Virus record (IMG/VR): IMGVR_UViG_3300035686_000002
Span: 64,001 to 128,000 of that record
Origin: a virus
Lineage: Duplodnaviria > Caudoviricetes
Reading direction: 5' to 3' (one strand)
Length of the DNA stretch: 64,000 bases
Below are positions 2,574 through 29,552 of this stretch, in pieces (the stretch's first letter is position 1; each line of letters opens with the position of its first letter). The notes below the pieces were generated by a model that worked only from the letters and a program-made list of their open reading frames with translations, was not told the DNA's origin and did no database searches. Made by a program: the position numbers and the translations under genes.

Positions 2574-2840
2574 TTAATAAATTTTATCTGGATCGTGTTT
2601 TGGTGGTGTGCCTTCGTCTGTAATTTCCCCTTCCCAAGTGTCCACAGCAGCTTGGGCTATTGTCATATCAGGCCACGGATTAGAGGAAGAATAAAGCATA
2701 AAGAATGGTTCGCCGATCGTTGCCGTTCTGATTTCGTTTTGTGTCCACTCATTTAGCATAGTCGTCAGGTCGGCATCGTCACTTGTCCATTCGCCGTTTT
2801 CAATATTGCATTTCGATCCGTGAATTTCTAAGGTAATCAT
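2574..2840 (-). CDS. Small acidic hypothetical protein, candidate immunity/partner of 2840..4753
   Basis: 88 aa, acidic. Its start overlaps the stop of the upstream peptidase-domain gene (TAATG). Confidence 0.55.
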   Translation of the reverse strand: MITLEIHGSKCNIENGEWTSDDADLTTMLNEWTQNEIRTATIGEPFFMLYSSSNPWPDMTIAQAAVDTWEGEITDEGTPPKHDPDKIY

Positions 2841-4753
2841 TATTTCCCTCTCAGCGTGTTGTAAATAAAAGCAAAATACTCTGGATCGGCTTTAGCGAAT
2901 CCAGCAGGATCTTTGTACATCATCTCCATTCCCATTGACAAAATCTCTGAATTTTCGTCACTGTTTGTTTTTTTGCCCATATAAGGTTTTAACCATTTAT
3001 CGGGCTTCGCTACTTCATTATCCCCGTAGTTTGAGTTGCCTGTCAAGTCGCTAAGTTTTTGCCATTTCTCCCCAGCAGTTCTATTCTCGAAAAACTTCTG
3101 CACTTTATTATGAATATTAGGATCTGATTCTTCTAGCCAGTGCGCTGCTTCGTGAACGACAACCTCTACAGGGGCTTTGTCCGCCATATAGATGCCACCT
3201 CTTCCGTAGAACGAGCGATCGGCTGCTTTCCCAAAGTTGGTATCAAGTGCTGCTACTTTTAAAGTTTTCCCGTCAACAGTATTAACTCCTACCATTTTCT
3301 TAAAAGCGATTATTCCTGCTACCAGTTTTGTTGATTGCTCTTGATTTAACGTTCCTGTCTTGGCTCGTGTTTTTGGATTTGTTAAGCCACCGTTGACTCC
3401 TTTCATTTTAGATGGCGGGTTTACATATAAAAATTCACGAGCAACATTTGCGGTGAAATTCTCATACTTTTTGCAAGCTTCTTCTACTTCCGTGTTCCAA
3501 TTTTCCGAATAAAATTTTCTAGCTGCTGCTTTCCCTTTTGTGGCTGTAATTTCATTAGCTTTCTTTGTCACTTCTTGCTTTTTGTCAATTGCTAATTTAT
3601 AGTCTTTCCCTATAACTTCAGATAATTTTTGCAAGTATGCAGCAACCTCCGCACCTGACTTCATTTTGCTCGCTGCTTGTCGTGCAAGTATTTTTGCTTC
3701 AGCAAAATTGTCGGAGTCAAATGCTTTTTTTAGTCCAGCGACTAGGGGGTCAATCGGTGGCTGCTTCTTAACCCCAGCCTTAAACATTCCCGCCCGTTCT
3801 TTCTCTAGCGTGTTTGCCTTGGCTTTCAAATCGTTAGCAGTGCCGTATCGCGACCACTTGTTATTGCCTTTTGAGTCTAAGTATTTGGCTAAAGCTCGGA
3901 TTTTGTCAATCCGTCCTTGGCTAACGCTCTCAATTGAGCCACCCGCTCGGTTAGTCTGTTGACCCGCACTGTTGATCCAACAGGTGTGTTGCAAGGGAAT
4001 ACAGATACTGCCGCACCCGTAGCTAATACTTGTGCAACGTGGCTTTTTCCCGCCTTTTACTGCGTCGTGCTTGACTTCTAATGAGGTATAACCCAGAGAG
4101 AACACGTCAAACAACCTTGAGTCTGCTACGCTGTCAGTGTTGTTTGTGGCGATCGCAGGCTTGTATCCAATTCGGTTGTCTTGGACAGAATAACTAAAAA
4201 TTCGACGATTCCAAGCGTCTTGGAATTTACCAGAAATATCGCCATTGTCCGCAATATCAAACGAAATTAAGTTAATGTTTGAACCGTAAGCATCGTCGCT
4301 TTTGATTAGTTCTTCCAATTGTTCGACAAAATTTGTCAACTCATCAGCGTCTTTTTTTACCTTAGAGTGCAAACCTATGTCATCTTGTAATTGGGCGATC
4401 GAATATTGACTAGCAGCCCCAAACAACTGCCGGGGAACGTGCTTAAGAAACGTCTCAACAGCCTCGTCAAAATTTTGAGCGCCCAAAACATACTTATACT
4501 CATCAATCGCCCCCGTCGGAGTAACTTGCACAACCTTAAATACTGTCGGCGCATCGCTGACTACATACACGTCTAAAGCTTTACCGTCCAAGCCAGCTCC
4601 CCACGAGCCACGAATGCAGCCGTAGTCGCAAGACATCGGTGGAGCAAATGAGAATCGAGCCTCCCCGCTTTTGGTAGTAATGTTTAGCGGGATTCCATTC
4701 CAGGATCGAACTTCCTTGGCGGGTTCGCTGTTGGCGTCTGTGCGATATCTCAT
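2840..4753 (-). CDS. Polyvalent phage protein: InPase-like domain + shared family module + Cys4 + zincin-like metallopeptidase
   Basis: N-terminal DYGCIRG...DGKALDVYV...DEYKYVLG (inorganic-pyrophosphatase-like). Internal SDDAYGS...GKFQDAWNRR...YKPA. CTSISYGCGSICIPLQHTC. C-terminal HEAAHWLE...PYMGK...EILSMGME. Confidence 0.8.
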   Translation of the reverse strand: MRYRTDANSEPAKEVRSWNGIPLNITTKSGEARFSFAPPMSCDYGCIRGSWGAGLDGKALDVYVVSDAPTVFKVVQVTPTGAIDEYKYVLGAQNFDEAVETFLKHVPRQLFGAASQYSIAQLQDDIGLHSKVKKDADELTNFVEQLEELIKSDDAYGSNINLISFDIADNGDISGKFQDAWNRRIFSYSVQDNRIGYKPAIATNNTDSVADSRLFDVFSLGYTSLEVKHDAVKGGKKPRCTSISYGCGSICIPLQHTCWINSAGQQTNRAGGSIESVSQGRIDKIRALAKYLDSKGNNKWSRYGTANDLKAKANTLEKERAGMFKAGVKKQPPIDPLVAGLKKAFDSDNFAEAKILARQAASKMKSGAEVAAYLQKLSEVIGKDYKLAIDKKQEVTKKANEITATKGKAAARKFYSENWNTEVEEACKKYENFTANVAREFLYVNPPSKMKGVNGGLTNPKTRAKTGTLNQEQSTKLVAGIIAFKKMVGVNTVDGKTLKVAALDTNFGKAADRSFYGRGGIYMADKAPVEVVVHEAAHWLEESDPNIHNKVQKFFENRTAGEKWQKLSDLTGNSNYGDNEVAKPDKWLKPYMGKKTNSDENSEILSMGMEMMYKDPAGFAKADPEYFAFIYNTLRGK

Positions 4754-6216
4754 TATTCTTCCTCCTCAAAAGCGGCTGCATCATCGCTACCCATTTCTAC
4801 TGGTGGAGCATTCTGTTCTTCTTCTAACTTTTTGCGCTTGTCAACATTTAAATTAACATTATATTGCGGAGTAGTCCCCCCAAATACTGACTTGGCAACT
4901 TCTTCTGGTAATAGCACTTGAGAGCTAATATAACCATTTAATGTTCCACCATAGATAGAAAATAACTCTGCTTTTTCTTTTTCAGTCATCGGGTGCGTGT
5001 CAACAAAATTCCACCGAAAACCGTTGGGTATATTTCCTTTTGTTGGTGAGTCTTTAGCAAGCCAGCAGAGCTTGTGAAATCGGTTTAATTGTTTTTTCAT
5101 ATGGCGGTCTTGATATTGGCGAACAGTTTTGTTCATATCTGTTTGCTCGCTGCCACCACTAACACCTAGTTTGCCTGCTGGCGACACTCCCAAAAGGTAC
5201 GTGCGCGGTAGATTGGATGCGGCTACACATTCGTCAATCGCTTTTTCTACCGCTCCAAAAATACTTTCAAAATTTAGTGAACTTTCTTGTATGTCTTCTT
5301 TGTCTTTGTCAATTACTCTGTATTTAAAGCTTGATTCCATTATTGCGCCTTCTGCAACACGCTTTCTTAAAATTTCTTCATTTCCCGCTAGAATTGTTTT
5401 CCACAAATCTGCAATCTTCCAAGTCTTTTTAATAATTTCTGGTAATAAAGAAGCAACTAAGCTAATAGCCATATCGTATCGAGCAAGTGGTTGAGCAAAT
5501 GTTTCTAATACCGAATTTCCCCAACCTTGATTGCGCTGTCTAGAACTGTCTAACAAACGGGCGGCACCGCCGAACCGTAAAATTCGCGATCGATGAATTA
5601 GTCCCGTATTACTATGCCCAATACTTTCTCCCAAGTTTAAACGATAGTGAGTTGGTCGGCTCATGTTCCATGCAATACTATCTTGCATTAAAAATTTTTT
5701 ATTTTTTTCTAACGTAGGATGGCGTTCTGGAGTTACAGCCCTACGGTTAAAAACTCGTAAAAAGTTAATAGTTTTAATATTTTTTTCATCTACTTCTTCC
5801 CAGGGTTCTCGTCCGTCGTCAATATCAATATAAATAGCTGAACCCCCTGTCAGTCGTTCTTCCCGCATAGCTTCGTTAAAAATGTCAGCCGTTGATATTT
5901 CATCGCCAACATCATCGACCAGCCTATCTTGGTATTCAATAAAATGACCAATTAAATTTGGCGCGTTGTTTTCGCCTGTAATTTGATACTCAACCCACTC
6001 ACGAGTACATTCGTCAGGTAGTATGTCAATTAAGTTTTGCACCATCCAGTGATATTCGTAAAGATGATCTATTTCTTGAGCTGTTAATTTACGACGAGAT
6101 TGAATTTGTGTAAATTGACTTCGATCTCGTGCTGTTCCTTGTCCAGTATAAACGTTGGCAAACAGTCCGGGCAAAAATGAATCCTGTCTACTAAACAAAT
6201 CATCTAAATCACTCAT
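4753..6216 (-). CDS. Phage portal protein (DUF1073 type)
   Basis: IDILPDECTREW, ERLTGGSAIYI, IHRSRILRF, GWGNSVL, AASNLPRTYLLGVSPAG, and W-F-x-x-x-P-x-TEKEKAE are typical DUF1073 portal features. Confidence 0.88.
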   Translation of the reverse strand: MSDLDDLFSRQDSFLPGLFANVYTGQGTARDRSQFTQIQSRRKLTAQEIDHLYEYHWMVQNLIDILPDECTREWVEYQITGENNAPNLIGHFIEYQDRLVDDVGDEISTADIFNEAMREERLTGGSAIYIDIDDGREPWEEVDEKNIKTINFLRVFNRRAVTPERHPTLEKNKKFLMQDSIAWNMSRPTHYRLNLGESIGHSNTGLIHRSRILRFGGAARLLDSSRQRNQGWGNSVLETFAQPLARYDMAISLVASLLPEIIKKTWKIADLWKTILAGNEEILRKRVAEGAIMESSFKYRVIDKDKEDIQESSLNFESIFGAVEKAIDECVAASNLPRTYLLGVSPAGKLGVSGGSEQTDMNKTVRQYQDRHMKKQLNRFHKLCWLAKDSPTKGNIPNGFRWNFVDTHPMTEKEKAELFSIYGGTLNGYISSQVLLPEEVAKSVFGGTTPQYNVNLNVDKRKKLEEEQNAPPVEMGSDDAAAFEEEE

Positions 6217-6932
6217 GGTTTATTTTCTAAGTTTTTAGGAATATTTGCAAACATTCTATTCAAATCAAAATCTTCTGTATCAAGTCCTAATGCTTTGTTA
6301 ATAACATCCGGGTTTTGCTCTTTATATTTCTGGTAACTTTCTGCCAGATATTGCTTACGCCTGTCTTCTGGTGACTCTTGTGAAGCATTGTAGGCTTGCA
6401 CCAATAAATTAATTGTACCAAGATCGAATCGATCAAACAAAGCTAGTGTATCTTGAACGCTTGTTGCCGCAGTCAGTTGTCCAATTGTATCAATCACAAA
6501 ATCACCACAACTCTTAATTGGCGGATTCCAGTTGTCAATCTCGTCTCCCTCTTGTGGCTCAAAAGGTACTTTTGTTGAGGTATCAAATTCTGATTGATGG
6601 AGGGCAAGCAACTCGCTGGGGAACGCTTGAGCTTGCGCTTCTTTTCCTTCAATACGGCACAAAAACATAGACTGCACTTCTTCTGGTTCCATTAGCGATA
6701 CATCCCAACCGTAAACAGTCGGCTGCGGTGGTGTATCAAGCCTAGGGAACAAATCAGCAATCTGCTGTAATAGTGTCCAGTGATTTGTAAGTAGCAAAGC
6801 AGTGTCACCACCTAAGTTTTCCCACACTTTTGTCAACTCTTCAGTTAGAAGCTGAAAAGAAGATAATCTGGAAAAAGGAACCGGGGCAATCACAATTACT
6901 TGAAGCCCCAGCCAAAAAAGTAAACTTTTCAT
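6213..6932 (-). CDS. Hypothetical protein, possible tail assembly chaperone
   Basis: Coupled downstream of the putative tail tube gene. No recognisable motif. Confidence 0.4.
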   Translation of the reverse strand: MKSLLFWLGLQVIVIAPVPFSRLSSFQLLTEELTKVWENLGGDTALLLTNHWTLLQQIADLFPRLDTPPQPTVYGWDVSLMEPEEVQSMFLCRIEGKEAQAQAFPSELLALHQSEFDTSTKVPFEPQEGDEIDNWNPPIKSCGDFVIDTIGQLTAATSVQDTLALFDRFDLGTINLLVQAYNASQESPEDRRKQYLAESYQKYKEQNPDVINKALGLDTEDFDLNRMFANIPKNLENKP

Positions 6933-6941
6933 TGCTTAGAT

Positions 6942-7763
6942 TTAACAAACTCTTTGCTGTGGCAACCATTCCCATTCATAAGGTCTGCACCGCCCAGCGG
7001 TGACGATTGTGTAAGCAATATCTACTTTTTGGTCGTCGCCTAAAGGAATATCGCCTTCAGCCGGATTTAAGAGTGCCTCAAAGATTTTTAAGTGCCACCG
7101 TTTTTGTGTTCGGGTTTGTCCGCAAATATTGATTTCGCATCGTTCCAAAGGAGCTGCTTCATTAAGGCGAACAATTCCGGCTAAATTATTCGGAATCATC
7201 ATTGATACGTGTTTGCCTACCAAATCAGCACTAAATCCCAGTCCCATGTTTGCACCGATCGCTACAGTTCGAGTTCCCGTTGGCGGTGTACTTGCTGAAT
7301 AAGTACCCGTCATTGTCAGTTCTACGGGAACACCATCTTCTGTAAGCGTTCCGCCTTTAGCACCTGTTGGAGATGCAATTACACCAAAACCTTCTTGACC
7401 TGCAATCGCTGGTGGTAAAAGTTGCTGGGTTATTAGCCGAGGGGCCCAGTGAATGAATGTAGGTGTTTGAGTCGCGATTGTCTCTGGCTCTAAACCTTCT
7501 CGCATACCTACCGTCAGTGGCGTAAACAGCGGGAAAGAAAATCGAATAGACGGTCTGTTTTCATTGGTAAACTGATCGGCAAGAACTTTTTCACCTTGAG
7601 CAGAAGAAGTCATTACTTCTGTCAAACTAACGCCTTTGTTGAGAACTGGATCGTTTGGAGTTGCTACGCAAACTGGAGAACCTAATACACCCAAATTGTT
7701 GTAAAAACGAATTGTGATGTCGGTTATTGAACCTTTGCGACCTTGAAACGGTGAATTTGACAT
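6942..7763 (-). CDS. Putative major tail (tube) protein
   Basis: 273 aa, beta-rich and G/P/T-rich, located in the virion operon after neck-like genes. Confidence 0.5.
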   Translation of the reverse strand: MSNSPFQGRKGSITDITIRFYNNLGVLGSPVCVATPNDPVLNKGVSLTEVMTSSAQGEKVLADQFTNENRPSIRFSFPLFTPLTVGMREGLEPETIATQTPTFIHWAPRLITQQLLPPAIAGQEGFGVIASPTGAKGGTLTEDGVPVELTMTGTYSASTPPTGTRTVAIGANMGLGFSADLVGKHVSMMIPNNLAGIVRLNEAAPLERCEINICGQTRTQKRWHLKIFEALLNPAEGDIPLGDDQKVDIAYTIVTAGRCRPYEWEWLPQQRVC

Positions 7764-7799
7764 AACTTTAAATTAGACAGTAAAATGAATTTGAACGAA

Positions 7800-8162
7800 T
7801 TAGCTAGTTTGACTAGCTTTTGGTTTTGGAACTGGCTTTGCTGTAACTGCCAAAACAACTTCGTTCTCGTCGGTTGGTGGAACGAACTGTTTTAGATCGA
7901 TCAAAATGTGATTTAACAAACTAGCTTCGCCTAATTCTCCGTTGACGTATTGAGCTGCTTTGACTTCAAATCGCTGTTTACCTTCTTCCACTCCGAGTCG
8001 AACACATTCAATTGTTGCAACAACAGTTTGTGTGCCGTCGAGCATTGGCATAATGAGCGGAAATATAAAACTGGTATCTGTTTCTGTTGGTTGTCCGGGG
8101 ACTATTTCGGCAGTAACGTCAACCATAGGATGTTCTTTTTCTACTTGAAGATTGATGATCAT
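7800..8162 (-). CDS. Hypothetical virion-operon protein
   Basis: Coupled ORF in the structural operon. Confidence 0.55.
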   Translation of the reverse strand: MIINLQVEKEHPMVDVTAEIVPGQPTETDTSFIFPLIMPMLDGTQTVVATIECVRLGVEEGKQRFEVKAAQYVNGELGEASLLNHILIDLKQFVPPTDENEVVLAVTAKPVPKPKASQTS

Positions 8163-8641
8163 GGGCTGAAAGCTCCTGTTACTGCGGTTAACTCTGCGAA
8201 TTCGCAGTGGAATTTGACATTAAACTGAAATACAAAAGACAGTATCCAGTCTGATTTGTTTTGGTCATTCAGTAACACGTTGCCTGTGCATTTAATTTCT
8301 TCAATATCGGATGACAGACAAGCGTAATGCGCTTGAAGATTTAACAAAATATAGGTTAATTTGTCTTCAGCTTGACTGCGAGGAACAGTTGTATAAGAAT
8401 GGGAGCTATCAAGTCGATATTCTACTTGTATAGGGATTTTTGTTTGAAGTAAATAACTACTTGTTTCTCCAGTTCCGACTATTTTCACTATTGAATACTC
8501 GGAAGCGTTTCCGTCAAGACCTGCTGAGGGTGGCGCTCGCAAGTCTTTGACTGATTCTGGCGAGTTTAGACCCCATCTATCTATTCGGAGTTGTTGACTC
8601 AACCATTCTTTTAATTTGGTTCTAAGTTCACTTGGTAGCAT
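8159..8641 (-). CDS. Putative tail terminator/completion protein
   Basis: 160 aa with N-terminal helix and C-terminal beta strands (WILSFVFQFNV), upstream of the tail tube candidate. Confidence 0.4.
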   Translation of the reverse strand: MLPSELRTKLKEWLSQQLRIDRWGLNSPESVKDLRAPPSAGLDGNASEYSIVKIVGTGETSSYLLQTKIPIQVEYRLDSSHSYTTVPRSQAEDKLTYILLNLQAHYACLSSDIEEIKCTGNVLLNDQNKSDWILSFVFQFNVKFHCEFAELTAVTGAFSP

Positions 8642-9117
8642 TAGATTAATCCTGGTAGAGTTCCAAAAATATTTGTTTTAAATAAATCGCCCTTGACAAT
8701 TAAATCTCCTTGCCAAGTTTTGTTAACGCTCAATCCTGTTAATTGAATTTCTAAAAATAGTTTTTTTGCAGGCTGAAACCAGGTCGCGTCCGATCGGGGC
8801 AAGTCCAAAAGTTGTCCAAGATTTTGGTCAAGGATTAGCGTTTCAGTATCTTGTGGGGCTAAAACTAAGGACAAATCTGCTGTCGTTAACGTCGTGTTTA
8901 GCGTGACAGCAAAGTTTTTGGAACCAATTGCTTGTACTGATTGAGCCGGATTCAACGAATCAAGCGCCAACAACCGCACAACGGGCAGAGTTTGCGCCGA
9001 GAAACTGGTTAACGGAATCCGGGCGGAAAACTTCAACGTGTCGCCCTGAATCATTACCAAGTTTCGCAGTTCGCTTGGCTTGTCGTTTACTGAGAATTTG
9101 ACTAAATCTAGACTCAT
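8641..9117 (-). CDS. Structural protein with BppU-N-like beta domain
   Basis: MIQGDTLKF...LVLAPQDT...FLEIQL...WQGDLIV pattern, similar to the C-half of 10476..11219. Confidence 0.5.
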   Translation of the reverse strand: MSLDLVKFSVNDKPSELRNLVMIQGDTLKFSARIPLTSFSAQTLPVVRLLALDSLNPAQSVQAIGSKNFAVTLNTTLTTADLSLVLAPQDTETLILDQNLGQLLDLPRSDATWFQPAKKLFLEIQLTGLSVNKTWQGDLIVKGDLFKTNIFGTLPGLI

Positions 9118-9120
9118 TAT

Positions 9121-10479
9121 CTACCTCCTTTTTTGTCTAGTTAATTCAAAATCGGCAGGAACAGTAAACAATCCTAGTGCGTTTTCTTCTAGTATCTCTA
9201 GCTCTGTCAAGCTTTCGCTTTCGATGTTTACTGATGCATCTTTCCTACCCTTTGCAGATTCCTCTTGATTTTTTATAAACTTTTTGGCATTTTCTTCGGT
9301 TAACTCCATACCTAACATATCTCCAGATGTAAAGCCAACTTTTTGATAAAACGGAATTGCATCACTTAGCGGATACAATTCAATACGCGGTTTTCTTTTC
9401 TCGGCAATTGCATTTTTAATTAAAGATTCTATTGCGCTTGCTCCCGCTCCTTTCTTCTTGTTTAGATGAGCTTCTAAACAGTTCCACGGAGCAGAAGCCA
9501 ATAAATTTACAAAGTATCCATCAGAAGTAATCTCGTAACTATATGCAGCTTGCAACTTTCCGTCTTTGTCTACAACTCCCCCAAAAATAATATCTTTTCT
9601 TTCTTTAGTCTTAAGTATAGCGCCAACAATACTTATTGTTGCATCTAACCTCTCTTCTGTTGTCCTTTGAATCAACCTACTATCCGGTATAGATTCATCG
9701 TATAGACTGAGTTGAGCTTGTTCTAATTCTTGTTGGATATCAATCCATTGTTGTAATTTTTCCCTGGTTTCTTTATCTCCTACGAATTTAAAATTCTTAT
9801 TACTTAACAAAAATTTTTCAGGTGCAAGGGTTGGTTCAGTAGATTGTTTTTCTTTGTTTGTTATTTGACGCTGAACCAGTCTGTCTCGCCCCTCTCCTTG
9901 ATATTTATTTCTTGCGCTTGTAATTCGAGCGCCTACAGCATTAACTGCTGCAAACTTCTTCTTGTCACCACTAGCCTCAAGTTTGATTGACAAATCTATC
10001 AACTTACTTAATCGTTCTTTCCCAATTGCTTTACCTTGAAACTCGCCTCGCGTCTTTTTGCCCGAACTTAAAATTCTGCAAGTTTTAGTTAAACCAATAC
10101 AACTAAACCCGCAGCTATAACCTTCAGTTCCACACTTAGGCTTTTTGACACGCTTTCCTATTTGACTTCTATCAAGTCGAATATTCGCAAATAGCGACGT
10201 ATACCCTTCACTAAAAGAATCAAGTTGTGCAGGCAATCCATTTACAGAAAAAGAATCAAGTCTTGCTGCTGGCTTGTAGCTAATCCCGTCAATGTCAATA
10301 ACAAATTCATAAACTCGATTGTTCCATGAATCCCTAAATTTACCATTGATAACCTCATCTTTAACCGAGTAAGTTAAAATTTGAATGTTGCTTCCGTAAG
10401 CCTCGTCACTCTCAAGAATTGATTCTAATTCAGCTAAAAACTCTTGTCTAACAGGTGATTCAGTAAGAGGTACACTCAT
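9121..10479 (-). CDS. Shared-N-module family protein with C-terminal GNAT acetyltransferase domain
   Basis: SDEAYGS...GKFRDSWNNR...YKPA and CGTEGYSCGFSCIGLTKTC. C-terminal LLASAPWN...KKGAGASAI...AIPFYQKVGF matches GNAT motifs A and B. Confidence 0.82.
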   Translation of the reverse strand: MSVPLTESPVRQEFLAELESILESDEAYGSNIQILTYSVKDEVINGKFRDSWNNRVYEFVIDIDGISYKPAARLDSFSVNGLPAQLDSFSEGYTSLFANIRLDRSQIGKRVKKPKCGTEGYSCGFSCIGLTKTCRILSSGKKTRGEFQGKAIGKERLSKLIDLSIKLEASGDKKKFAAVNAVGARITSARNKYQGEGRDRLVQRQITNKEKQSTEPTLAPEKFLLSNKNFKFVGDKETREKLQQWIDIQQELEQAQLSLYDESIPDSRLIQRTTEERLDATISIVGAILKTKERKDIIFGGVVDKDGKLQAAYSYEITSDGYFVNLLASAPWNCLEAHLNKKKGAGASAIESLIKNAIAEKRKPRIELYPLSDAIPFYQKVGFTSGDMLGMELTEENAKKFIKNQEESAKGRKDASVNIESESLTELEILEENALGLFTVPADFELTRQKRR

Positions 10480-11219
10480 GCCCTACCTCCTATCCCGCGA
10501 CAGATGTCATCAGACACAGAAAACCTCGACCGATTGACCGTGTAGTGTTCGCCGTTAACCGTGCCGTCGTCAAGCTGAATGTCGGCATACACGATTGCAG
10601 GTGTCATAAGGGCAGCAGTATCTTGCGGTAAAAGGCGAATTTGGTATGTGGCCGCCCGTGTTTTGCCGTTGTAGGTAACAATGTCCTCCACTCCCAAAAA
10701 CTTAACGCCACCGTTTTGCAAGGTTTTTCTAAATAGCGCTTTGCTGTCCAAGTGTGCAGGGTCAGTTTTTCCGGTAAAAGTTACATTGACCGAACCATTG
10801 GTTTCCGACGCTACCCGATCACCCACAATCCGCAAATTGAACGCATAAAAGTCTCCCCGCGTCAGTTGATTGCCGTCTAGCTGTTCCTCTTGTCCATTTT
10901 TGAGTAGGAATAATTCAGCGCTAGGGGGATAGACTATTTTGCCGAGCAACGACAGCAGCAAAAATTCATCCTGTCCAACTTTGCTCTCAACAGCGATCGC
11001 TCGACCAAATGACAGGGCTAAGTCGCAAGTGTCAGCGCTGACCTTTGCTGAGGCTGAAAGCGATCGACCAAATTGAAGATTTATTTCAACGCTGTCGTTG
11101 CTAACCCGTGACTGAGCTGCAACTGCACGTCCAAAAGTCCACTTTGGCTCGTCAGCTTCAACCGCATCATTACCAACTTTTGAGTAAGCTCCGACTGAAA
11201 TTCCCACCATTTTTATCAC
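10476..11219 (-). CDS. Structural protein: N-terminal FGR-x-x-A repeats plus BppU-N-like domain
   Basis: Three FGR(A/S)xxAxxxV repeats, then LTRGDFYAF...IRLLPQDTAAL...YADIQL. Confidence 0.5.
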   Translation of the reverse strand: MIKMVGISVGAYSKVGNDAVEADEPKWTFGRAVAAQSRVSNDSVEINLQFGRSLSASAKVSADTCDLALSFGRAIAVESKVGQDEFLLLSLLGKIVYPPSAELFLLKNGQEEQLDGNQLTRGDFYAFNLRIVGDRVASETNGSVNVTFTGKTDPAHLDSKALFRKTLQNGGVKFLGVEDIVTYNGKTRAATYQIRLLPQDTAALMTPAIVYADIQLDDGTVNGEHYTVNRSRFSVSDDICRGIGGRA

Positions 11220-12049
11220 CCCCTAATAATGATTCCGCCGGGTTCGATCGTCAGCAAGTCGCGATTCCAGCCGTATTTGCCGGGGGCTAGCGTCCCCCAA
11301 TGCCACAGTTCACCTTCTGACAAAAGTTGGAAGCCGCCGATCGGGCCAGTGTCAGCGGTAAATTGATCAAAGGCGATCGGAAGTAAGTTGTCTGTTTGTC
11401 GAGTCAGCAGCGGATCTCGCCAGCTTGTTAAGGCACAGGGATATTCTTTTTCCGCTGTGGGCGAAAGCGGTTCTGCCTCGCCCGTTAGCGGGTTCAGCCC
11501 AGGTTTGACGAGCCTGATTGTTACAGCACTTTGAGGCGTGATAGCTTGCCCTTTAAACACTGCGTTTAGTCGCTTGTTTCTCAGGGGTATGCTGGTGCAT
11601 TGAGCTAAGCCACCGCCGTTAGCTTCATCAATCGTAAAGTTTTTGGTTGGGTGGGTGTCGAAGAAAAAATAATCTGGAGGCTCGATCGTTTCGCCGTTTC
11701 TTAGATGCCCAGCGTAAAAAATCTCAGCGCCAACGGTGATTTGCCAAGAAATTGGCTTGTAACTTGCAGTTGCGTTGGGGTAGCGCAGAATACTGCTATT
11801 GCTCGTTTTACCTGCGTCTGCTGCAAACATTTTAGAGCTATCAAGGTCGAAGGGTAGGTATCCGCCACCTGTTACTTCTGTTATTACTCCGCTGGCATTG
11901 GGCAATGTTGTTCCCAGTCTCTGTCGGGGAACTTCTATTACCGAGAAGGCGATGCCTCGATAGACGTTGAGCTGGTGCTGAACTAGAATTGGCGATTTGG
12001 TTTCCATATTATCTTCTGCTGGTTTTTCGTAAATAGTGTCGCGGCCCAT
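11216..12049 (-). CDS. Tail/fibre-associated structural protein with internally duplicated domain
   Basis: Two similar halves (EVTGGGY...SNSSILRYPNATA...FYAGHL and TDNLLPIAFDQFTA...WHWGTL) in the virion operon. Confidence 0.5.
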   Translation of the reverse strand: MGRDTIYEKPAEDNMETKSPILVQHQLNVYRGIAFSVIEVPRQRLGTTLPNASGVITEVTGGGYLPFDLDSSKMFAADAGKTSNSSILRYPNATASYKPISWQITVGAEIFYAGHLRNGETIEPPDYFFFDTHPTKNFTIDEANGGGLAQCTSIPLRNKRLNAVFKGQAITPQSAVTIRLVKPGLNPLTGEAEPLSPTAEKEYPCALTSWRDPLLTRQTDNLLPIAFDQFTADTGPIGGFQLLSEGELWHWGTLAPGKYGWNRDLLTIEPGGIIIRG

Positions 12050-13418
12050 TTATCGTGCTAATAACAGCCCCTCTTTCTAATTCTTCAGGTACTTTTTCAC
12101 CTTCTCTTCCGTGTCCTATTAATTGATAGTCGTCACTATTTGCTTGAAGATCAAGCATCATTTTATTGAAGTCTTCAGAAGAAACTCTCTCTTTGAGCGT
12201 GTCTCTTATTTTTGTAATTGGCACCAAATCATCATAGTTAAATTCATCATTTAACGCTTTTCTAATTTTTTCTGTAACTTCTTCAAATTCTTTTTGAGAT
12301 TTAATTCTGGAACCTTTTACATACTGTCTTGCTGTTCCTAACGGATCCAAGTCTGGGCGATTATCTAATTGTTCGTCAATTTTAGCTTGTTTTTCTGGGC
12401 TTAAATCTTTGATTCTATTTTTAGCTTGATCTTCTAACTTAATATAAAAACGAAGTCCATTTGTGTTTGTTGTAATTGAGTTTTCAATTTGTCGAGCATA
12501 ATCAGATCCTTGAGAACCTCCAGAACCCCCGTAAAGTAAAACGTTGTCGTTAGCCTGTAAGTCTTTTACGTATTGATTAAATTTGTCTCTAGACACTAAT
12601 TCTCCAATAGCTTCCCTAACTTTATGAATAGGGACATCATCATCATCGTCTTTTCTTAATTTATCAACTACGCGCAAAAACACATCTTCAAATTCTTTCT
12701 GAGTCTTTATAGAATGAGTTTTAGAATTTGTAGTTTGATCAAAACCTAATTTTGTTTTTGATTTTTTTTGAATTTTTGATTCTTCTTCAGCAGATTGTTT
12801 TTCTTTGTTTGTTATTTGACGCTGAACTAACCTGTTTCGTCCTTCTCCTTGGTACTTGTTTTTTGCGCTTGTAATTCGAGCGCCTACAGCATTAACGGCT
12901 GCAAACTTCTTCTGATCACCAGACGCGGCAAGCTTGACTGACAAGTCTATCAATTTACTCAAACGCTCTTTTCCAATCGCCTTGCCTTGAGATTCGCCTC
13001 GTGTTTTTTTGCCTGAACTTAAAATTCTACAAGTTTTTAGCAATCCAATACAGCTAAATCCGCAGCCATAACCTTCGGCTCCGCACTTGGGTTTTTTGAC
13101 GCGTTTGCCTATCTGATTTCGATCAAGTCGGATATCCTCGAATAATGACCCATATCCTTCACTAAAAACATCAAACCTTGTAGGCAGATCGTCAACGCTA
13201 ATAGAGTCAAGTTTTGCTGCTGGTTTGTAACTAATTCCATTAACGTCAATAATAAATTCATAAACTCGGTTGTTCCAAGAATCTTTAAATTTTCCGTTAA
13301 TAGTTTCGTCTTTAAGCGAATAAGTCAGAATTTGCAGGTTGCTTCCATAAGCTTCATCACTTTCAAGGATTGACTCTAACTCAGCCAAAAACTCCTGCCT
13401 AGTTGAATCGTCGCTCAT
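12009..13418 (-). CDS. Shared-N-module family protein with two tandem winged-helix-like C-terminal repeats
   Basis: The N-terminal ~200 aa are nearly identical to 9121..10479. Repeats IKTQKEFE...VPIHKVREAI...LQAND...LRFYIK and IKSQKEFE...VPITKIRDTL...LQANS...PRHYLR. Confidence 0.78.
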   Translation of the reverse strand: MSDDSTRQEFLAELESILESDEAYGSNLQILTYSLKDETINGKFKDSWNNRVYEFIIDVNGISYKPAAKLDSISVDDLPTRFDVFSEGYGSLFEDIRLDRNQIGKRVKKPKCGAEGYGCGFSCIGLLKTCRILSSGKKTRGESQGKAIGKERLSKLIDLSVKLAASGDQKKFAAVNAVGARITSAKNKYQGEGRNRLVQRQITNKEKQSAEEESKIQKKSKTKLGFDQTTNSKTHSIKTQKEFEDVFLRVVDKLRKDDDDDVPIHKVREAIGELVSRDKFNQYVKDLQANDNVLLYGGSGGSQGSDYARQIENSITTNTNGLRFYIKLEDQAKNRIKDLSPEKQAKIDEQLDNRPDLDPLGTARQYVKGSRIKSQKEFEEVTEKIRKALNDEFNYDDLVPITKIRDTLKERVSSEDFNKMMLDLQANSDDYQLIGHGREGEKVPEELERGAVISTINGPRHYLRKTSRR

Positions 13419-13848
13419 CTGGCTTCCTCCTTACCGTAAGAATATAGACAAGGGGGTTGTTCTCGTCAATTGTCACAAACTCTACCTCAATGCCACCAAA
13501 TACTTTTCCATTGCGCATCTCTGCGTTAACCCAGTAACTTGTCCCGGTTGCCTGAAGCCAATCGTCAAGATCGAGATTGCGCGGGATGCCAGAAAGAGTA
13601 AACTCATCTTCCCGCGCCTCTGTCCCGTCGTTTGCCATTGTGGGCGAGAAAGTTGATGGCGGTGCTTTCTTCCAGATTAGATTGCTTACAGATCGCAGCT
13701 CTTGGCGAGAAACGCCGTCTGCCGTAAACCGTCGCACGAGTAAAAGACTGACAACATTGGTCAAGCCAAAACCATCGGCGGTCTTGGCAAAACTACAATC
13801 CCTAGCTTTTTGAGCAATCTTGGCAAAACTCATGCGATTATCCCGCAA
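13399..13848 (-). CDS. Putative head-closure/neck protein
   Basis: Position directly after the DUF4054 connector, 149 aa. Confidence 0.45.
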   Translation of the reverse strand: MRDNRMSFAKIAQKARDCSFAKTADGFGLTNVVSLLLVRRFTADGVSRQELRSVSNLIWKKAPPSTFSPTMANDGTEAREDEFTLSGIPRNLDLDDWLQATGTSYWVNAEMRNGKVFGGIEVEFVTIDENNPLVYILTVRRKPDERRFN

Positions 13849-14180
13849 GTAGGTAGCTGTGATTGAATTCGGATAACTTCTTGACCATAGCTGGTGCTAT
13901 TTAAGTTGTTGGCGCTGCCACCCCCAACTTTAGGGAGTGAAGGAGAACCACCCTTTGCTGCCTCTACCGCCGCTCCTGCAATTACCCCTAATTGAAAAAG
14001 GTACATTGCTATCTTGTGTGCTGCCAAATGTGCGATCGCCTCTTGATGCAAATTCCCATATTTATGAGCAGGGCATTCTTTACTCGCTTGGAGCAAAGCT
14101 CGTTCAATTTGATAGCGATCACACTCCGCAAGCTCAGGAAATAGCAAACAAAAGTTTTCAACAGAGACTTGTCCGATCAT
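13830..14180 (-). CDS. Head-tail connector (DUF4054-like)
   Basis: F-x-x-x-FPEL, AIAHLAAH, LNSTSYGQE are DUF4054 hallmarks. Confidence 0.85.
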   Translation of the reverse strand: MIGQVSVENFCLLFPELAECDRYQIERALLQASKECPAHKYGNLHQEAIAHLAAHKIAMYLFQLGVIAGAAVEAAKGGSPSLPKVGGGSANNLNSTSYGQEVIRIQSQLPTCGIIA

Positions 14181-14551
14181 TTTTTAGAAGGAGTGGGAGG
14201 GGTAGGAGTTTTTTCAACTTCTGACGGACGAGTAACGAAAGCAGAAACGTCCGCTGCTTCGGAGCTAGCTTCTTGTGCAATCAACTTGGTTTCTATCGGA
14301 GCAGATACCCGCGCAGTTTTCTTAGTATCTGGCGGCGCAATCACTGTAGGCTGCTCAAACAGAACTCGGATAATTCCTTGCTCTTGCCTGAGTTTAATTA
14401 GTGGATGATCTGCAACCTCTTTCCATTTGTCAATATCAACTTCGTTCTTCTTACCAGCCACTAGCTGTATCGAGCCAACAAACAAATCGCCGCTTTGTGG
14501 AACTGGACTTAGCTGTGGTAAATATTCAACAATTCCTATTATTCCGCTCAT
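14177..14551 (-). CDS. Hypothetical head-associated protein
   Basis: Lies between capsid and connector. IQLVAGKKNEVDIDKWKEV...HP motif with a low-complexity tail. Confidence 0.6.
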   Translation of the reverse strand: MSGIIGIVEYLPQLSPVPQSGDLFVGSIQLVAGKKNEVDIDKWKEVADHPLIKLRQEQGIIRVLFEQPTVIAPPDTKKTARVSAPIETKLIAQEASSEAADVSAFVTRPSEVEKTPTPPTPSKK

Positions 14552-15468
14552 TAACTTGCTAATACTCCTTCTACAACTACTGCTGACAAGCGACTAAAGA
14601 ATGTGCCACCGTTTCGTTCGTGAATCAGCACTTCCTTGGAAGTGTCGCTGTTGTGGTGCAACAACTGCTCAATCGGCTGCGGAATAAACCGTTTTACGTG
14701 GCTTGGATCTTTCTTGTAAAAGATAATCGCCGGGGTTCCCCCAAATCCAGCCTCGTCTGCCTCGCTTACGTCGTCAACGTAAGTAATTTGTGGGTTGGAC
14801 TTGCGCCACAAATCCATCAGCGTTACGTCTGAGTTCGCATTTCTAAACGTGGTATTTAGAACGGTTCGCACTCGCGAGGGGAACAGTACAGTATCAGCTT
14901 TGAAAGTTCGTCGAGTTATTTGGTCGTAAACCATGTTTGACCAAATATTGAGGTAACGCAGCATCAAGTTTGGATCTAATGTCGGATCGTCGAACTGGAT
15001 AGGACTGAGAACTTTTGGCAGCAAAGGAAATGTAAACAATCCATAGAGTCCGGCATCTGGATCGCCCAGATACGAAACGCGATTGCTTTCTCGCGCTACC
15101 ATTTCTTTTGCGCCCAAGGCTTTTTCTGCTGAAATATCAATTCCAGCAAATGTTGCCGTCCGCACTTCCTGAAAAGTGACGCGCCACGCTGCCTCAATCG
15201 ATTTAACGTTGCTGGCGTTCATGGCTTCACTCACCACCCCGACCAACGGCGGATCGTCACCGGGAGCGGAAGTTATTTTGGCTCGACCGCGATAGTCAAG
15301 CGTTACTTGGGTCAGCATCTGAGCGCCGGGGCCGCCCTCAAAAGAAGTTGGGATGTGTTGGGCAGCTTTCAATTCGGGATATTCAGCTCTTGCGACTTCA
15401 CCTAGAATATGCTCGACGGCACGTTGCAAAAGGTAAGGCCCATCCATTCGGACATCTGTTGGAGACAT
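14551..15468 (-). CDS. Major capsid protein (DUF2184/HK97-fold type)
   Basis: EYPELKA...IP, SYLGDPDAGLYGLFTFP, ADTVLFPS, IFYKKDP, ERNGG. Follows the protease and decoration genes. Confidence 0.88.
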   Translation of the reverse strand: MSPTDVRMDGPYLLQRAVEHILGEVARAEYPELKAAQHIPTSFEGGPGAQMLTQVTLDYRGRAKITSAPGDDPPLVGVVSEAMNASNVKSIEAAWRVTFQEVRTATFAGIDISAEKALGAKEMVARESNRVSYLGDPDAGLYGLFTFPLLPKVLSPIQFDDPTLDPNLMLRYLNIWSNMVYDQITRRTFKADTVLFPSRVRTVLNTTFRNANSDVTLMDLWRKSNPQITYVDDVSEADEAGFGGTPAIIFYKKDPSHVKRFIPQPIEQLLHHNSDTSKEVLIHERNGGTFFSRLSAVVVEGVLAS

Positions 15469-15491
15469 TTTAGTTGTTTTAAATAATGGGG

Positions 15492-16292
15492 TTAAGCTGC
15501 TGCGGGGGCAGTAATACTGGCGTATCCGAGTTTGATTTGCGCCAAATCAGTTCCTGATGTCAAAAACTGAGCGTTTGTCAACTGCAAGTCGGCACCCGCC
15601 GCAGTTGCACCACGAAATGCTCCAATTTTTCCAGCGCCAGAATAGCGGTAAAAAACAGGAGAACTAGGATTTACTGGAGGGCCTTCAACCGCGACCCACA
15701 ATGTCCCAGCCTCGCGAACGAGCATCACGTCGTTTTTTCTATACACGTGCTTGTTAGATCCGCACGGATAAGCGTTTGTCCGAAGTCCATCGTCAGCAGT
15801 TACCCCGACGAACTTGTGATTTGCATCTGGCGCACCTAACCTGACTTCTCGCTCGCTATCGGTAGCAAGGCGAACTACGGCAAGACCTAGTTCAATATCA
15901 GTGGACGCAACAACTGGTGTTGTAACGGCTTGAGTTAAGGCTGCACTACCCGGTATCACGGTCAAAGTTTGTCCCGGAAGTCCAGTAATAGTTATGGCGC
16001 TAGCGCCTCCTGTGGCAGCATCAACACCCGCAAAGGATTGATTGATGGCAGCAACTAAAGCATCCCGGAGCAAAGTGACGTTCCCTCCGGTTGCAGGCGT
16101 CGTCGTAGTGACTGTGACGCCGTTAATAGTTACTGCGTATTCCGTGCTGGGCGTAAAAGTAGCGATAGTAAGCGTTACAACTCCAGCAACGTCTAACGCT
16201 GTATTGAAGTAGCTTCGATCGTACTTAGGAGCCAAGTCTGCTGGCATACCGGGGTAGCCGATCGGAAAAGTTGAAGCAAAAGAAGTTTGCAT
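15492..16292 (-). CDS. Capsid decoration/cement protein with inserted Ig-like domain
   Basis: GYPGMPAD N-terminus, IELGLAVV, FVGV, VREAGTLWV...PVFYR...GAF. Lies between protease and capsid. Confidence 0.78.
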   Translation of the reverse strand: MQTSFASTFPIGYPGMPADLAPKYDRSYFNTALDVAGVVTLTIATFTPSTEYAVTINGVTVTTTTPATGGNVTLLRDALVAAINQSFAGVDAATGGASAITITGLPGQTLTVIPGSAALTQAVTTPVVASTDIELGLAVVRLATDSEREVRLGAPDANHKFVGVTADDGLRTNAYPCGSNKHVYRKNDVMLVREAGTLWVAVEGPPVNPSSPVFYRYSGAGKIGAFRGATAAGADLQLTNAQFLTSGTDLAQIKLGYASITAPAAA

Positions 16293-16296
16293 TAAT

Positions 16297-17745
16297 TTAA
16301 TTACTGTTTTTCCAAGCGTTTTGTACTTTAGCTTTTTGTTCTTGCTGAATTTTTTCTAGCGAGTCAACTGGGTAGTTGCTCGAATCAGCTTTTGCTTGAT
16401 CGATCCATTGACCCACAGACGCACGCTCAGGACTCGGCTTGGCGATTCCCTCGGCAACCATGACGCTAAATGCTGTCCGGATCACATCGTCTGGGTTGCT
16501 TGCCGATTGAACCAACGAATCAAGATTGAGTGCAGGGCGAGAATTTTGCAGTGCAAGCCGCATGATTCCAACACTATCAAGCGTATAGTCTGGTTCTTTT
16601 ATGGCAATGTTTGGCAAAAACGGCTCTGCCTCTTTCCAAGTTTTGATCCAAGACTCTCGCTGACTTATGATTGCTTTTTCTTGAGCTTCGCGAGTTAATT
16701 GCAGTTCAGCATCTAACCGTTGAACTTTAGCTTTGGCAGTGTCAAGTTCGCGACGGAAAGCAGCATTATCTCTCTCCGCACTGTCAAGACGACCTTCTAA
16801 TTCAGTAATCTGAATCTGTTTTTCCTTAACTCGGCGATTAGTTGCGCTGTCACTATCCGATCGGCTTAAATCGCTTTCAACAGACAAAGTATCTTCGATT
16901 GCTGTAGCTCGACCTTGCCAATAAGCAGCAGAGTCTTTAGTTTCGGTTAACTCTTCCTCTTTCTCTGTCCACATTGCTTGCATTTCAATTACAAGAGAAA
17001 TTAAATCTTCTTTGCTTTTTCCACGCAATTCTTCTTCATCGTGCATTTTCATATCAGTTTCACCTCCTACTTTTATGTGCAGATTATCAAGCCGAACCTC
17101 TGAATCGTTCCAAGCAGGTTCGGCAAGCTGCCAGCATTTTTCTAAAATTTCTGAATCTTTATGAAGTTCAGGGGTTGACAATCCGGGATAAAGACGAAGA
17201 TCTGCACCGCCCCGTGCTTTAACAGTTAGAGCTATATGATTGCCTTTGATATTCCGCTGAATCGCGTCGTATCGCTGACCCTCCCAAACTCCCGGAGTCC
17301 AGTCAAGTTTAGTCAGATAGCCGACAGACAATTCAATCCGCCCACCATCTAGCGCATTTTTAACAGCGTGTTGGTCAATTATCTTGACTTTTGTACTGAC
17401 AAACCCGCCGTCATAATTAACCGAGCCGTTCCAACCGACCGCAAAATGCCGAGCGTTGGAAGAGTCCAGCATTGCCGGGGGATGTTCGATAGAGATTGGC
17501 AAATCACATAACGTTTTTAAGGAGTCGCGGTTTGCGACTTCCTCCGGTGGACGAAACTCTCGACGAACGGTGCCGTCAGGGTTGGGGTATTCTTGAATCC
17601 CGATGCGGGCAATTTTGGCATTGGCAACCAAATACCCTTCGGGCGTCAGTTGCCATTCACCTAGCTTGCCGGAATCGGCTCGATATTCCCAATCGATTTT
17701 TTCAAGAACTTCAGGCATTTGAACTGCACAGCAAGGTGCTTGCAA
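16297..17745 (-). CDS. DUF2213 prohead protease/scaffold (likely start at 17718)
   Basis: TPEGYL...ARIGIQEY...FRPPEEV...PISIEHP...ELSVGY...YDAIQRNIKGNHIAL...ARGG, followed by a C-terminal coiled coil. Confidence 0.92.
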   Translation of the reverse strand: MQAPCCAVQMPEVLEKIDWEYRADSGKLGEWQLTPEGYLVANAKIARIGIQEYPNPDGTVRREFRPPEEVANRDSLKTLCDLPISIEHPPAMLDSSNARHFAVGWNGSVNYDGGFVSTKVKIIDQHAVKNALDGGRIELSVGYLTKLDWTPGVWEGQRYDAIQRNIKGNHIALTVKARGGADLRLYPGLSTPELHKDSEILEKCWQLAEPAWNDSEVRLDNLHIKVGGETDMKMHDEEELRGKSKEDLISLVIEMQAMWTEKEEELTETKDSAAYWQGRATAIEDTLSVESDLSRSDSDSATNRRVKEKQIQITELEGRLDSAERDNAAFRRELDTAKAKVQRLDAELQLTREAQEKAIISQRESWIKTWKEAEPFLPNIAIKEPDYTLDSVGIMRLALQNSRPALNLDSLVQSASNPDDVIRTAFSVMVAEGIAKPSPERASVGQWIDQAKADSSNYPVDSLEKIQQEQKAKVQNAWKNSN

Positions 17746-29333: not shown

Positions 29334-29552
29334 GTGAATTTTTTTTTAAAGCTGTTCCAGCCTAAAACATCTAATCCTGACAAATGCACAAAAGAATCAA
29401 CAGACCCAACAGAATCAAAAGAATCAGTTGAAAATAATTCGGATCTCAATGCTGATTCAACTATTTCTCACTATTCTGTCAGCCCTGGTGCAGAATCAAT
29501 TAGTCAAGTAACACTTGATTACCGAGGTCGCGCTAAATTGCACGGACAATAA
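29334..29552 (+). CDS. Small protein ending in a major-capsid-identical peptide
   Basis: PGAESISQVTLDYRGRAK versus capsid PGAQMLTQVTLDYRGRAK. Confidence 0.65.
   Translation: MNFFLKLFQPKTSNPDKCTKESTDPTESKESVENNSDLNADSTISHYSVSPGAESISQVTLDYRGRAKLHGQ

Follow-up and report, generated by a model that had tools for sequence, protein, structure and literature searches.

Gene content of the head module

The stretch of DNA analyzed here, henceforth the window, comprises 64,000 nucleotides, from base 64001 to base 128000, of a virus record of 151.7 kb in IMG/VR (IMGVR_UViG_3300035686_000002), the relatives of which are uncultured phages, some of them stemming from cyanobacteria of filamentous growth (e.g., Microcoleus and Kamptonema), with the cyanophages S-CBS4, CL131 and PaV-LD as more distant relatives. 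Its head module is encoded on the minus strand and opens with the gene of a DUF2213 protein (16297..17745; PF09979, phrog_530), which is composed of a head-maturation protease (the N-terminal ~165 residues), a disordered linker and a helical, scaffold-like C-terminal half. This protease-scaffold gene is followed by those encoding a cement protein (15492-16292), the major capsid protein, which belongs to the PF09950 family as does T1 gp47 (14551..15468; Pfam E = 9e-24, phrog_264 E = 4e-40), a set of connector and tail-like proteins among which two paralogous, putatively packaged ‘cargo’ proteins are located (12009-13418 and 9121-10479), the portal protein (4753..6216; PF06381 E = 9e-46, phrog_146 E = 2e-66) and a portal-adjacent protein (2840..4753). 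The present analysis concerns a short Asp-centred motif that recurs in these proteins and that may mark the sites at which the DUF2213 protease cuts them. Relatives with genomic context were obtained from one contig in IMG/VR and four in a metagenome scan, with none found in a genome scan. All coordinates refer to the window and, unless stated otherwise, to its minus strand.

The first-pass annotation of the window had listed instances of a pattern [R/K/N]-x-D-[A/S/G] in head and cargo proteins, and had interpreted these as a cleavage code. Each of the listed instances was located where it had been placed, for example RQDS at residues 10-13 of the portal protein, RMDG at residues 7-10 of the capsid protein, and RADS, RSDS, RLDS, RLDA, NLDS and KADS in the protease. 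HKDS of the protease and RLDR of the cargo proteins, although present, fall outside the pattern as written. Matches that had not been listed are NPDG, NRDS, NYDG and RYDA in the protease, and RLDA at residue 277 of the cargo protein that carries a GNAT domain.

A predicted prohead protease fused to a scaffold

The match of the protease to PF09979 (DUF2213/Pa193_gp24) scored 111.9 bits relative to a cut-off of 22 (E = 4e-32), that to phrog_530 returned an E value of 5e-64, and the gene is the only DUF2213 gene of the genome. Searches for the S78, ClpP and S77 families returned no match in the genome, the S77 control search being likewise empty in every genome. The listed open reading frame (ORF) of 482 residues opens with a TTG codon, with positions 17719-17745 lying upstream of Met10; translation probably starts at the ATG of Met10 (17716-17718), and it is the resulting 473-residue form that is held in databases. 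Since the database forms begin at Met10, the alignment numbering of the protease is 9 lower than that of the 482-residue ORF.

An AlphaFold model, based on an alignment of 24 sequences and with a mean predicted local distance difference test (pLDDT) score of 69, exhibits a beta-rich domain (residues 10-165, pLDDT 70-86), a disordered stretch (residues 170-225, pLDDT < 50) and a series of helices (residues 228-472). The top three Foldseek hits of this model are chains of T4 gp21 (5jbl), with E values of 2e-5 to 8e-5, a probability of 1.00 and template modelling (TM) scores of 0.56-0.61 by target, and the human cytomegalovirus protease (assemblin) was also retrieved, lower down among the matches. 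H79, S131 and H161 are invariant among 24 protease homologs, and S131 aligns with S121 of T1 gp50, which a preprint on T1-like phages calls catalytic. Among the other invariant residues, R38, R52, R56, K112 and R169 are candidates for lining an S1 pocket with Arg and Lys. Fold match and conservation thus point to a serine prohead protease of the gp21/assemblin fold, with a putative His-Ser-His triad, whose gene sits with those of the capsid and cement proteins and whose domain is fused to a scaffold-like helical half.

Enrichment of the motif in DUF2213 proteins

The protease-scaffold protein contains 10 motifs where 1.32 are expected (p <= 5e-5, 20,000 shuffles), and DS is by far the most over-represented of the 400 dipeptides in this protein (13 versus 2.6 expected, p = 3.5e-6). 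A comparable excess was observed for the DUF2213 proteins of phages T1 (12 motifs seen, 1.4 expected), TLS (13, 1.3), KpV522 (11, 1.7), Sanco (10, 1.6), RobRod40 (9, 1.4), phiEt88 (10, 1.6), phiKP26 (13, 1.5) and PaV-LD (13, 1.9). The DUF2213 proteins of Webervirus members fall within the same range of 9-13 motifs, and in unrelated phages the enrichment in protease-scaffold proteins is 5- to 9-fold. It extends to C-terminal scaffold halves that cannot be aligned to that of the present phage, and across 120 database homologs a mean of 8.2 motifs was found versus 1.5 expected. An Asp-centred tally of 85 distant homologs returned a 2.8-fold excess of Arg and a 2.2-fold excess of Lys at position -2, and a 1.7- to 3.5-fold excess of Cys, Ser, Gly and Ala at position +1, while a Glu-centred tally of the same homologs returned nothing comparable. 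As this result was replicated in proteins that had not been used to define the motif, the motif represents a property of the family rather than a post hoc artefact.

The reading according to which a loose four-residue pattern, chosen post hoc, has simply been matched by chance draws on the fact that such a pattern is expected approximately once per 500 residues, and that the genome outside the protease shows no general enrichment, with 80 motifs versus 72.5 expected. It is, however, confronted with the replication in independent proteins outside the motif definition, with the position of DS at the top of all 400 dipeptides, and with the near-total conservation of the sites; chance stands refuted where the protease is concerned, and likewise for the capsid site and for the cargo cassette described below, and as a general account of the motif it is scarcely credible.

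Beyond the protease, counts are less telling. Head and cargo proteins together contain 15 motifs versus 8.1 expected (Poisson p = 0.019), or 11 versus 8.1 if paralogous positions are counted once (p = 0.19). The position of the motif, in contrast, is non-random: among the head-assembly proteins, 4/6 (the portal, capsid, protease and portal-adjacent proteins) have a motif that begins no further than residue 25, compared to 7/202 other ORFs (Fisher p = 6e-5), the former set having been defined post hoc. Position and the comparison with other phages provide stronger evidence than the counts. The DUF2213 protein of phage PB1 contains A-M-D-S (residues 398-401) but no [RKNH]-x-D-[ASG] at all. Self-cleavage of the scaffold of phage ICP1 was considered as additional support and was dropped, the ICP1 scaffold not having been shown to be a DUF2213 protein and the sampled Vibrio phages, of about 49 kb, not being ICP1.

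Sites within the protease-scaffold protein

Conservation of the individual sites was assessed in an alignment of 24 homologs of 100-33% identity. The Asp residues of HKDS, RLDN, TKDS, RLDS and TLDS were found to be near-invariant, and the sites RSDS, RLDA, NLDS and KADS are mostly kept, in a C-terminal half that is otherwise variable. At the N-terminus of the protease, RADS (17671..17682) possesses an Arg (R13) and an Asp (D15) that are invariant down to 33% identity, it lies in a modelled strand (residues 10-17), and its place is taken by RFDS in the T1 and TLS proteases; it may either belong to the fold, as a strand, or serve self-processing of the N-terminus. HKDS (17152..17163), just past the protease domain, lies in the disordered linker, where D188 (473-residue numbering) is near-invariant in otherwise variable surroundings, and is a candidate self-cleavage site that would separate the protease from the scaffold. 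It is followed in the same linker by a second R-x-D, RLDN (17083..17094), of which R209 and D211 are near-invariant in the 24 homologs and which is disordered in the model.

Within the scaffold half, TKDS (16930..16941) is positioned at a break between two helices, with near-invariant D262 and S263 and a pLDDT below 50 at residues 260-263, and RSDS (16852..16863) occupies a disordered inter-helix loop (low confidence at residues 275-289) and is present as [RK]-[ST]-D-[SN] in most homologs. Both RLDS (16780..16791), with near-invariant D312, and RLDA (16708..16719), which is mostly [RKH]-L-D-[ASTG], are located inside a long scaffold helix. TLDS (16573..16584; D377 near-invariant) lies in a loop between helices 370-374 and 382-393, NLDS (16516..16527; N398 and L399 near-invariant) at a helix junction, and KADS (16381..16392), which is [KR]-x-D-S in most homologs, near the C-terminus beside a disordered stretch (low confidence at residues 445-452). 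In the model, most of the conserved Asp-Ser sites in the scaffold half are thus found in linker, helix breaks or loops, whereas RLDS and RLDA are buried in the course of the long helix.

These positions also bear on a purely structural explanation, by which the motif would represent helix caps, beta-turns or i/i+2 salt bridges of a coiled-coil scaffold, and by which the head proteins would be left unprocessed at these sites or altogether. Such an explanation would suit NPDG and NYDG, which form hairpin turns in the model, RADS and RYDA, which are located in strands, and the two sites inside the long helix, and it is in keeping with the general observation that Asp and Ser are common at helix starts. 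What it leaves unexplained is the recurrence of Arg or Lys at position -2 in scaffold halves that are mutually unalignable and, as outlined in the next section, the N-termini of capsid proteins in related phages.

Capsid and portal sites and the mature ends of related proteins

A profile of the capsid protein matches the solved capsid chains of T1, Pam3 and XM1, with E values of 1e-38 to 9e-11. RMDG (15439..15450) is located at residues 7-10, and a maturation cut is predicted between D9 and G10, by which a leader of nine residues would be lost. Among 16 homologs, the most distant of 32% identity, D9 does not vary and R7 is retained in most, while the 4-16 residues ahead of R7 vary in both length and sequence. 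Gene callers also returned a 298-residue form of the capsid protein that starts from Met8, within RMDG (window positions 15427-15468 being concerned); this start was rejected, and translation from Met1 adopted, because the homologs have Leu at the position of Met8 and retain the upstream leader. A small ORF on the plus strand (29334-29552), termed the ‘capsid mimic’, contains NADS and ends in a peptide that is near-identical to the capsid segment QVTLDYRGRAK.

HMMER aligns D9 to D25 of the T1-like capsid protein 9n01, and the equivalent Asp of TLS precedes an N-terminus that was determined experimentally. The capsid protein of TLS virions was shown by Edman degradation to start with ASDMGIW (PMC11447400), and this sequence is found directly after K-N-D27 in the deposited TLS protein, where it begins at residue 28 of 324. 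The authors of that study inferred that 45 residues are removed and left the preceding Asp unremarked (PMC11447400); an Edman start at residue 28 of the deposited protein means that 27 residues are removed rather than 45. According to the same paper, the mature capsid protein of phage Rogue1 starts with Ala (PMC11447400). The cryo-electron microscopy (cryo-EM) model of the T1 capsid was built from residue 27 (PMC11945409), at which point the T1 sequence reads K-Q-D26|A27, and further T1-like capsid proteins contain K-L-D|A or K-A-D|A at the equivalent place. Likewise, the XM1 capsid protein is reported without its first 30 residues, which end in F-K-D30.

In Pbunavirus members, the first 65 residues of the capsid protein are missing from the E217 structure and the first 93 residues of the portal protein from that of Pa193. 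The PB1 orthologs possess A-M-D64|S65 in the capsid protein (residues 62-65) and A-M-D76|S77 in the portal protein (residues 74-77); the A-M-D-S of the Pbunavirus capsid protein adjoins the visible start of E217 (residue 66), and that of the portal protein precedes the first residue of the Pa193 model by 17 positions. The Pa193 gp24 fragment 286-326 was also considered as a test of a boundary and was set aside, its density ends being uninformative.

The portal protein of the present phage contains RQDS at residues 10-13 (6178..6189), a candidate N-terminal cut site, with R-x-D-S being kept in three relatives. At the same N-terminal place, and behind leaders that are variable, the portal proteins of T1-like phages and of phiEt88 contain [K/N]-x-D-[G/D/S] followed by Tyr, the corresponding residue here being Phe. 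The T1 portal model proved uninformative as a test of a cut at residue 7, as it starts at residue 32.

A structural role of the motif leaves unexplained both the TLS Edman result, together with the T1 and XM1 models that start exactly after the aligned Asp, and the presence of an invariant Asp behind capsid and portal leaders that vary; we consider that role improbable. If the cuts are real, they might instead be made by another enzyme, either the HExxH domain of the portal-adjacent protein or a host protease. The HExxH sequence is indeed present in that protein, the authors of the XM1 study proposed a metalloprotease-like protein as the prohead protease, and the staphylococcal phage 80alpha is known to use a host protease. 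Yet in widely differing phages the occurrence of the motif follows that of DUF2213 proteins, which are themselves the richest in sites, the DUF2213 protein exhibits the prohead-protease fold with conserved His, Ser and His, and the T1-like phages, which show the cut after Asp, possess a DUF2213 gene annotated as a head maturation protease. A different enzyme is therefore regarded as very improbable.

A family of putative cargo proteins with a three-site linker

Four paralogs in the genome share an N-terminal part, with a fifth (1505-2557) being doubtful, and 74 relatives were retrieved from databases, the C-terminal domains of which are GNAT (PF13673), ADP-ribosyltransferase (PF03496), pentapeptide repeats or nothing recognisable. 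Common to the family is a leader and Cys4 part that stays the same while the effector domain joined to its C-terminal side is exchanged, and this one phage carries four to five copies.

The GNAT paralog (9121..10479) consists of a leader (residues 9-70), an Asp-site linker (73-110), a Lys/Cys4 knuckle (109-134), helices, the GNAT domain (231-410) and a C-terminal tail. In its model, residues 9-70 form a helix and a four-stranded sheet, and residues 116-134 a small hairpin with four Cys residues, while residues 73-110 have a pLDDT below 50, with all three Asp sites inside this segment. The three-site cassette (10168..10263) is composed of RLDS at residue 73, QLDS at residue 85, for which most members have R-F-D-[A/S], and RLDR at residue 101. 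In the first site, [K/N/R]-L-D75-S, Asp is present in 73/74 sequences, K/N/R at -2 in 74/74 and Ser at +1 in 71/74; in the second, R-F-D87-[A/S/T], Asp is found in 74/74 and Arg at -2 in 68/74; and in the third, R101-x-D103-[R/G/A], both R101 and D103 are retained in 74/74. In the 74-member alignment, the cargo sites lie after an invariant Y-K-P-A and before G-K-R-x-K-K-P-K and four invariant Cys residues, and their placement at predicted domain borders is confirmed by alignment and model. Furthermore, RKDA (residues 412-415; 9235..9246), which is modelled with low confidence as part of the segment (412-419) that connects the GNAT domain to the helices at the end of the protein, is a candidate site that would free the C-terminal tail, whereas RLDA at residue 277, within a helix of the modelled GNAT domain, is probably structural and not a cut site.

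A second paralog (12009..13418), which is 74% identical to the GNAT paralog over residues 6-262, contains KLDS at residue 69, RFDV at residue 81 and RLDR at residue 97. The ADP-ribosyltransferase paralog (32170..33366, plus strand; PF03496 E = 6e-6, phrog_16619 ‘minor head protein’ E = 5e-25) contains NLDS at residue 69 and RIDA at residue 97. The portal-adjacent protein (2840..4753; PF18823 E = 5e-15, phrog_33618 E = 3e-48) comprises an InPase domain, the leader module, Cys4 and an HExxH domain, with RTDA at residue 4, KKDA at residue 133, i.e., at the junction of the InPase domain and the leader, NTDS at residue 205 and KHDA at residue 228; its HExxH sequence, HEAAH, is located within a region that matches phrog_33618 and phrog_19443 (‘minor head protein’), and may be part of a zincin-like domain. 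A divergent, probable member (1505..2557) contains YKP, Cys4, KADS, KLDS and RADA; its membership is weak, as it was aligned only by MAFFT and was missed by a protein search of the genome.

The cultured cyanophage PaV-LD possesses four places that match the cargo leader, as well as a DUF2213 protein with 13 motifs; its ORF078 is 27% identical and contains G-K-M-D|S and F-R-V-D|A ahead of its Lys/Cys4 segment. The leader itself returned no Pfam or informative PHROG match, and no fold relative was recognisable, structure matches having TM scores by query below 0.5 and the ESM Atlas yielding no usable feature match. A resemblance of the leader to the scaffold, which it might have mimicked, was rejected (hhalign probability 3%). 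The cargo proteins returned no MuF (PF04233) match at E <= 0.01.

It is conceivable that the rule of cutting after Asp applies to the capsid and scaffold proteins, and perhaps to the portal, and that the cargo is left uncut, its sites being docking pseudo-substrates, by which the protease or scaffold would be bound for packaging, or forming with the Lys/Cys4 segment a small element of structural, metal-binding or DNA-binding function. This would agree with cargo motif counts that are not above chance, with the frequent Arg at position +1 (P1') of the third site (40/74), unlike the small residues of verified capsid sites, and with the high conservation of F-D-x-[Y/F]-S-x-G-Y between the sites, which suggests a folded or binding element. 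On the other hand, the three sites lie in a segment predicted to be disordered and share the [K/R]-x-D grammar of the scaffold sites, the cargo module was found together with a DUF2213 protease in 5/5 phage records examined (including this genome and PaV-LD), and the relatives of the cargo by fold or profile are labelled minor head or capsid proteins, the fold matches of the GNAT paralog in BFVD, for example, being acetyltransferases and a ‘minor capsid protein’. Hints that the cargo is packaged come from these labels and from the place of its genes in the head module. We regard an uncut cargo as unlikely, though it deserves more weight than any of the other alternatives.

Interpretation of the motif as a cleavage rule

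The observations taken together are best explained by a DUF2213 protease-scaffold that cuts [R/K]-x-D|[S/A/G] in capsid, portal, scaffold and cargo proteins, to which we assign a probability of roughly 0.6. Within the procapsid, a cut at R-M-D9|G would remove the nine-residue capsid leader and the portal N-terminus would be trimmed at R-Q-D12|S. The protease would free itself from the scaffold half, which it would fragment at approximately eight conserved Asp-Ser sites in loops and helix breaks. Cutting of the cargo linker, with its three [K/R]-x-D sites, would detach the 70-residue leader from the Lys-rich Cys4 knuckle and the swappable enzyme that this carries, which would be GNAT, ADP-ribosyltransferase or InPase/HExxH.

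The interpretation offered by the first-pass annotation is supported in part. Good support for cleavage after Asp, with the DUF2213 protease as the enzyme, comes from relatives, namely from the N-termini of their capsid proteins, alongside the family-wide enrichment and the gp21 fold, whereas the count test does not extend beyond the protease. Release of the cargo is plausible, its sites being highly conserved and located in predicted disordered linkers. The motif itself, its enrichment and conservation and the fold are observed here, and the position of the mature capsid N-terminus is known from relatives; that the present phage makes these cuts, trims its portal protein and packages the cargo, and that the leader serves targeting, is inferred. 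In a broader form, DUF2213 may represent a very large family of Asp-specific prohead proteases which, in this lineage, also acts on interchangeable enzymes (GNAT, ADP-ribosyltransferase, pentapeptide-repeat, pyrophosphatase/HExxH) that are loaded into the procapsid by a leader, cut in a linker and left on a Cys4 knuckle that enters the host with the DNA; this wider proposal is put forward tentatively, at somewhat less than even odds.

Several observations weigh against the interpretation. Five matches (RADS, NPDG, NRDS, NYDG and RYDA) map to the folded part of the protease, where the model has them in strands, at hairpin turns and at a helix start, and are probably structural rather than cut sites, with the N-terminal RADS being ambiguous; Asp-Ser may, moreover, also mark helix starts. 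The proposed excess of motifs in head and cargo proteins, relative to tail proteins, holds for the protease alone: cargo, portal and capsid counts do not significantly exceed those of the tail and other structural proteins, which contain 14 motifs versus 12.0 expected (conditional p = 0.14), and the finding does not depend on this comparison. Nor is the motif avoided in the mature capsid protein (10 versus 7.9, 22 sequences). Alignment of D9 with the cut-site Asp of T1-like phages needs a gap of one residue, the start residues of cryo-EM models may reflect disorder and not cleavage, and the experimental N-termini come from relatives only, none of them close to this phage. Finally, P3 (position -2) is not fixed, with several conserved sites carrying His, Thr or Gln and Pbunavirus members having A-M-D|S, and the pattern as written is therefore only an approximation at the level of clades; from the sequences compared, Asp at P1 appears to be general and P3 to differ between clades.

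The known cleavage rules, i.e., those of T4 and phiKZ-like phages (Glu) and of herpesviruses (Ala), have made it possible to predict mature virion proteins, propeptides and packaged proteins from sequence. DUF2213 is among the commonest head proteases of phages, with 1,709 matching records in a phage collection, including those of T1-like phages, Klebsiella Webervirus, Pseudomonas Pbunavirus and many cyanophages. If true, an Asp rule, under which most clades have Arg or Lys at P3, would serve to put right the mature ends that are adopted when therapeutic phages are modelled by cryo-EM or studied by proteomics, to recognise anti-host enzymes delivered by the capsid from sequence alone, and to suggest ways of loading capsids of this kind with foreign proteins. 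PaV-LD would be a practical experimental system for the combination of cargo and DUF2213 protease, and the rule is readily testable in T1 or TLS.

Comparison with known systems

A cleavage consensus or Asp rule for DUF2213 enzymes was not found stated in the literature on DUF2213, T1 processing and Asp-specific prohead proteases, and Asp at P1 was found described for no phage maturation protease. The nearest counterparts are the protease-scaffold proteins of T1-like phages (T1 gp50 and TLS gp33), which share PF09979, the order of N-terminal protease and C-terminal helical scaffold, a PF09950 capsid protein and 12-13 motif sites, and in which the capsid protein is cut after Asp (K-N-D|A in TLS by Edman degradation). 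They differ in that identity, at ~35-45%, is restricted to the protease domain, in that the capsid leader is 26-27 residues long compared to 9 here, and in that they are without the cargo leader family, a search of a phage database having found the leader in PaV-LD only.

T4 gp21, the best structural match to the present protease, acts by a similar logic: through this one enzyme the capsid protein is trimmed, the scaffold is broken down, and the proteins that are packaged and injected, among them an ADP-ribosyltransferase, lose their N-terminal targeting peptides. It cuts after Glu in [L/I]-x-E, and the capsid-targeting sequences that it removes (IPI-III, Alt) are 10-19 residues long, whereas the present system is predicted to have Asp at P1 and Arg or Lys at P3, and is characterized by a putative folded leader of ~70 residues with a three-site linker and by fusion of the protease to the scaffold. 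In phiKZ-like phages (gp175 of phiKZ; SPN3US), propeptides are removed from many head and ejection proteins at one consensus, [S/A/G]-x-E|; that protease belongs to a different Pfam family and is without a fused scaffold. The likeness consists of many propeptides and one short consensus. In herpesvirus assemblin, protease and scaffold are likewise joined, with cleavage following the Ala of [V/L]-x-A|S and Ser at P1'; it has the His-Ser-His order in common with the present protease, with a weaker fold match and no detectable sequence relationship.

The Pbunavirus proteins (Pa193 gp24 and PB1 gp22) belong to the same Pfam family, with Asp-Ser at or upstream of the capsid and portal boundaries, yet P3 is Ala there instead of Arg or Lys and the capsid protein belongs to a different family. 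As regards the cargo, the MuF-type polymorphic toxins and polyvalent proteins are likewise encoded by a portal-adjacent gene and join an N-terminal part that is constant to C-terminal domains, enzymes or toxins, that vary, the constant part here being another module, one with an Asp-site linker and a Cys4 knuckle.

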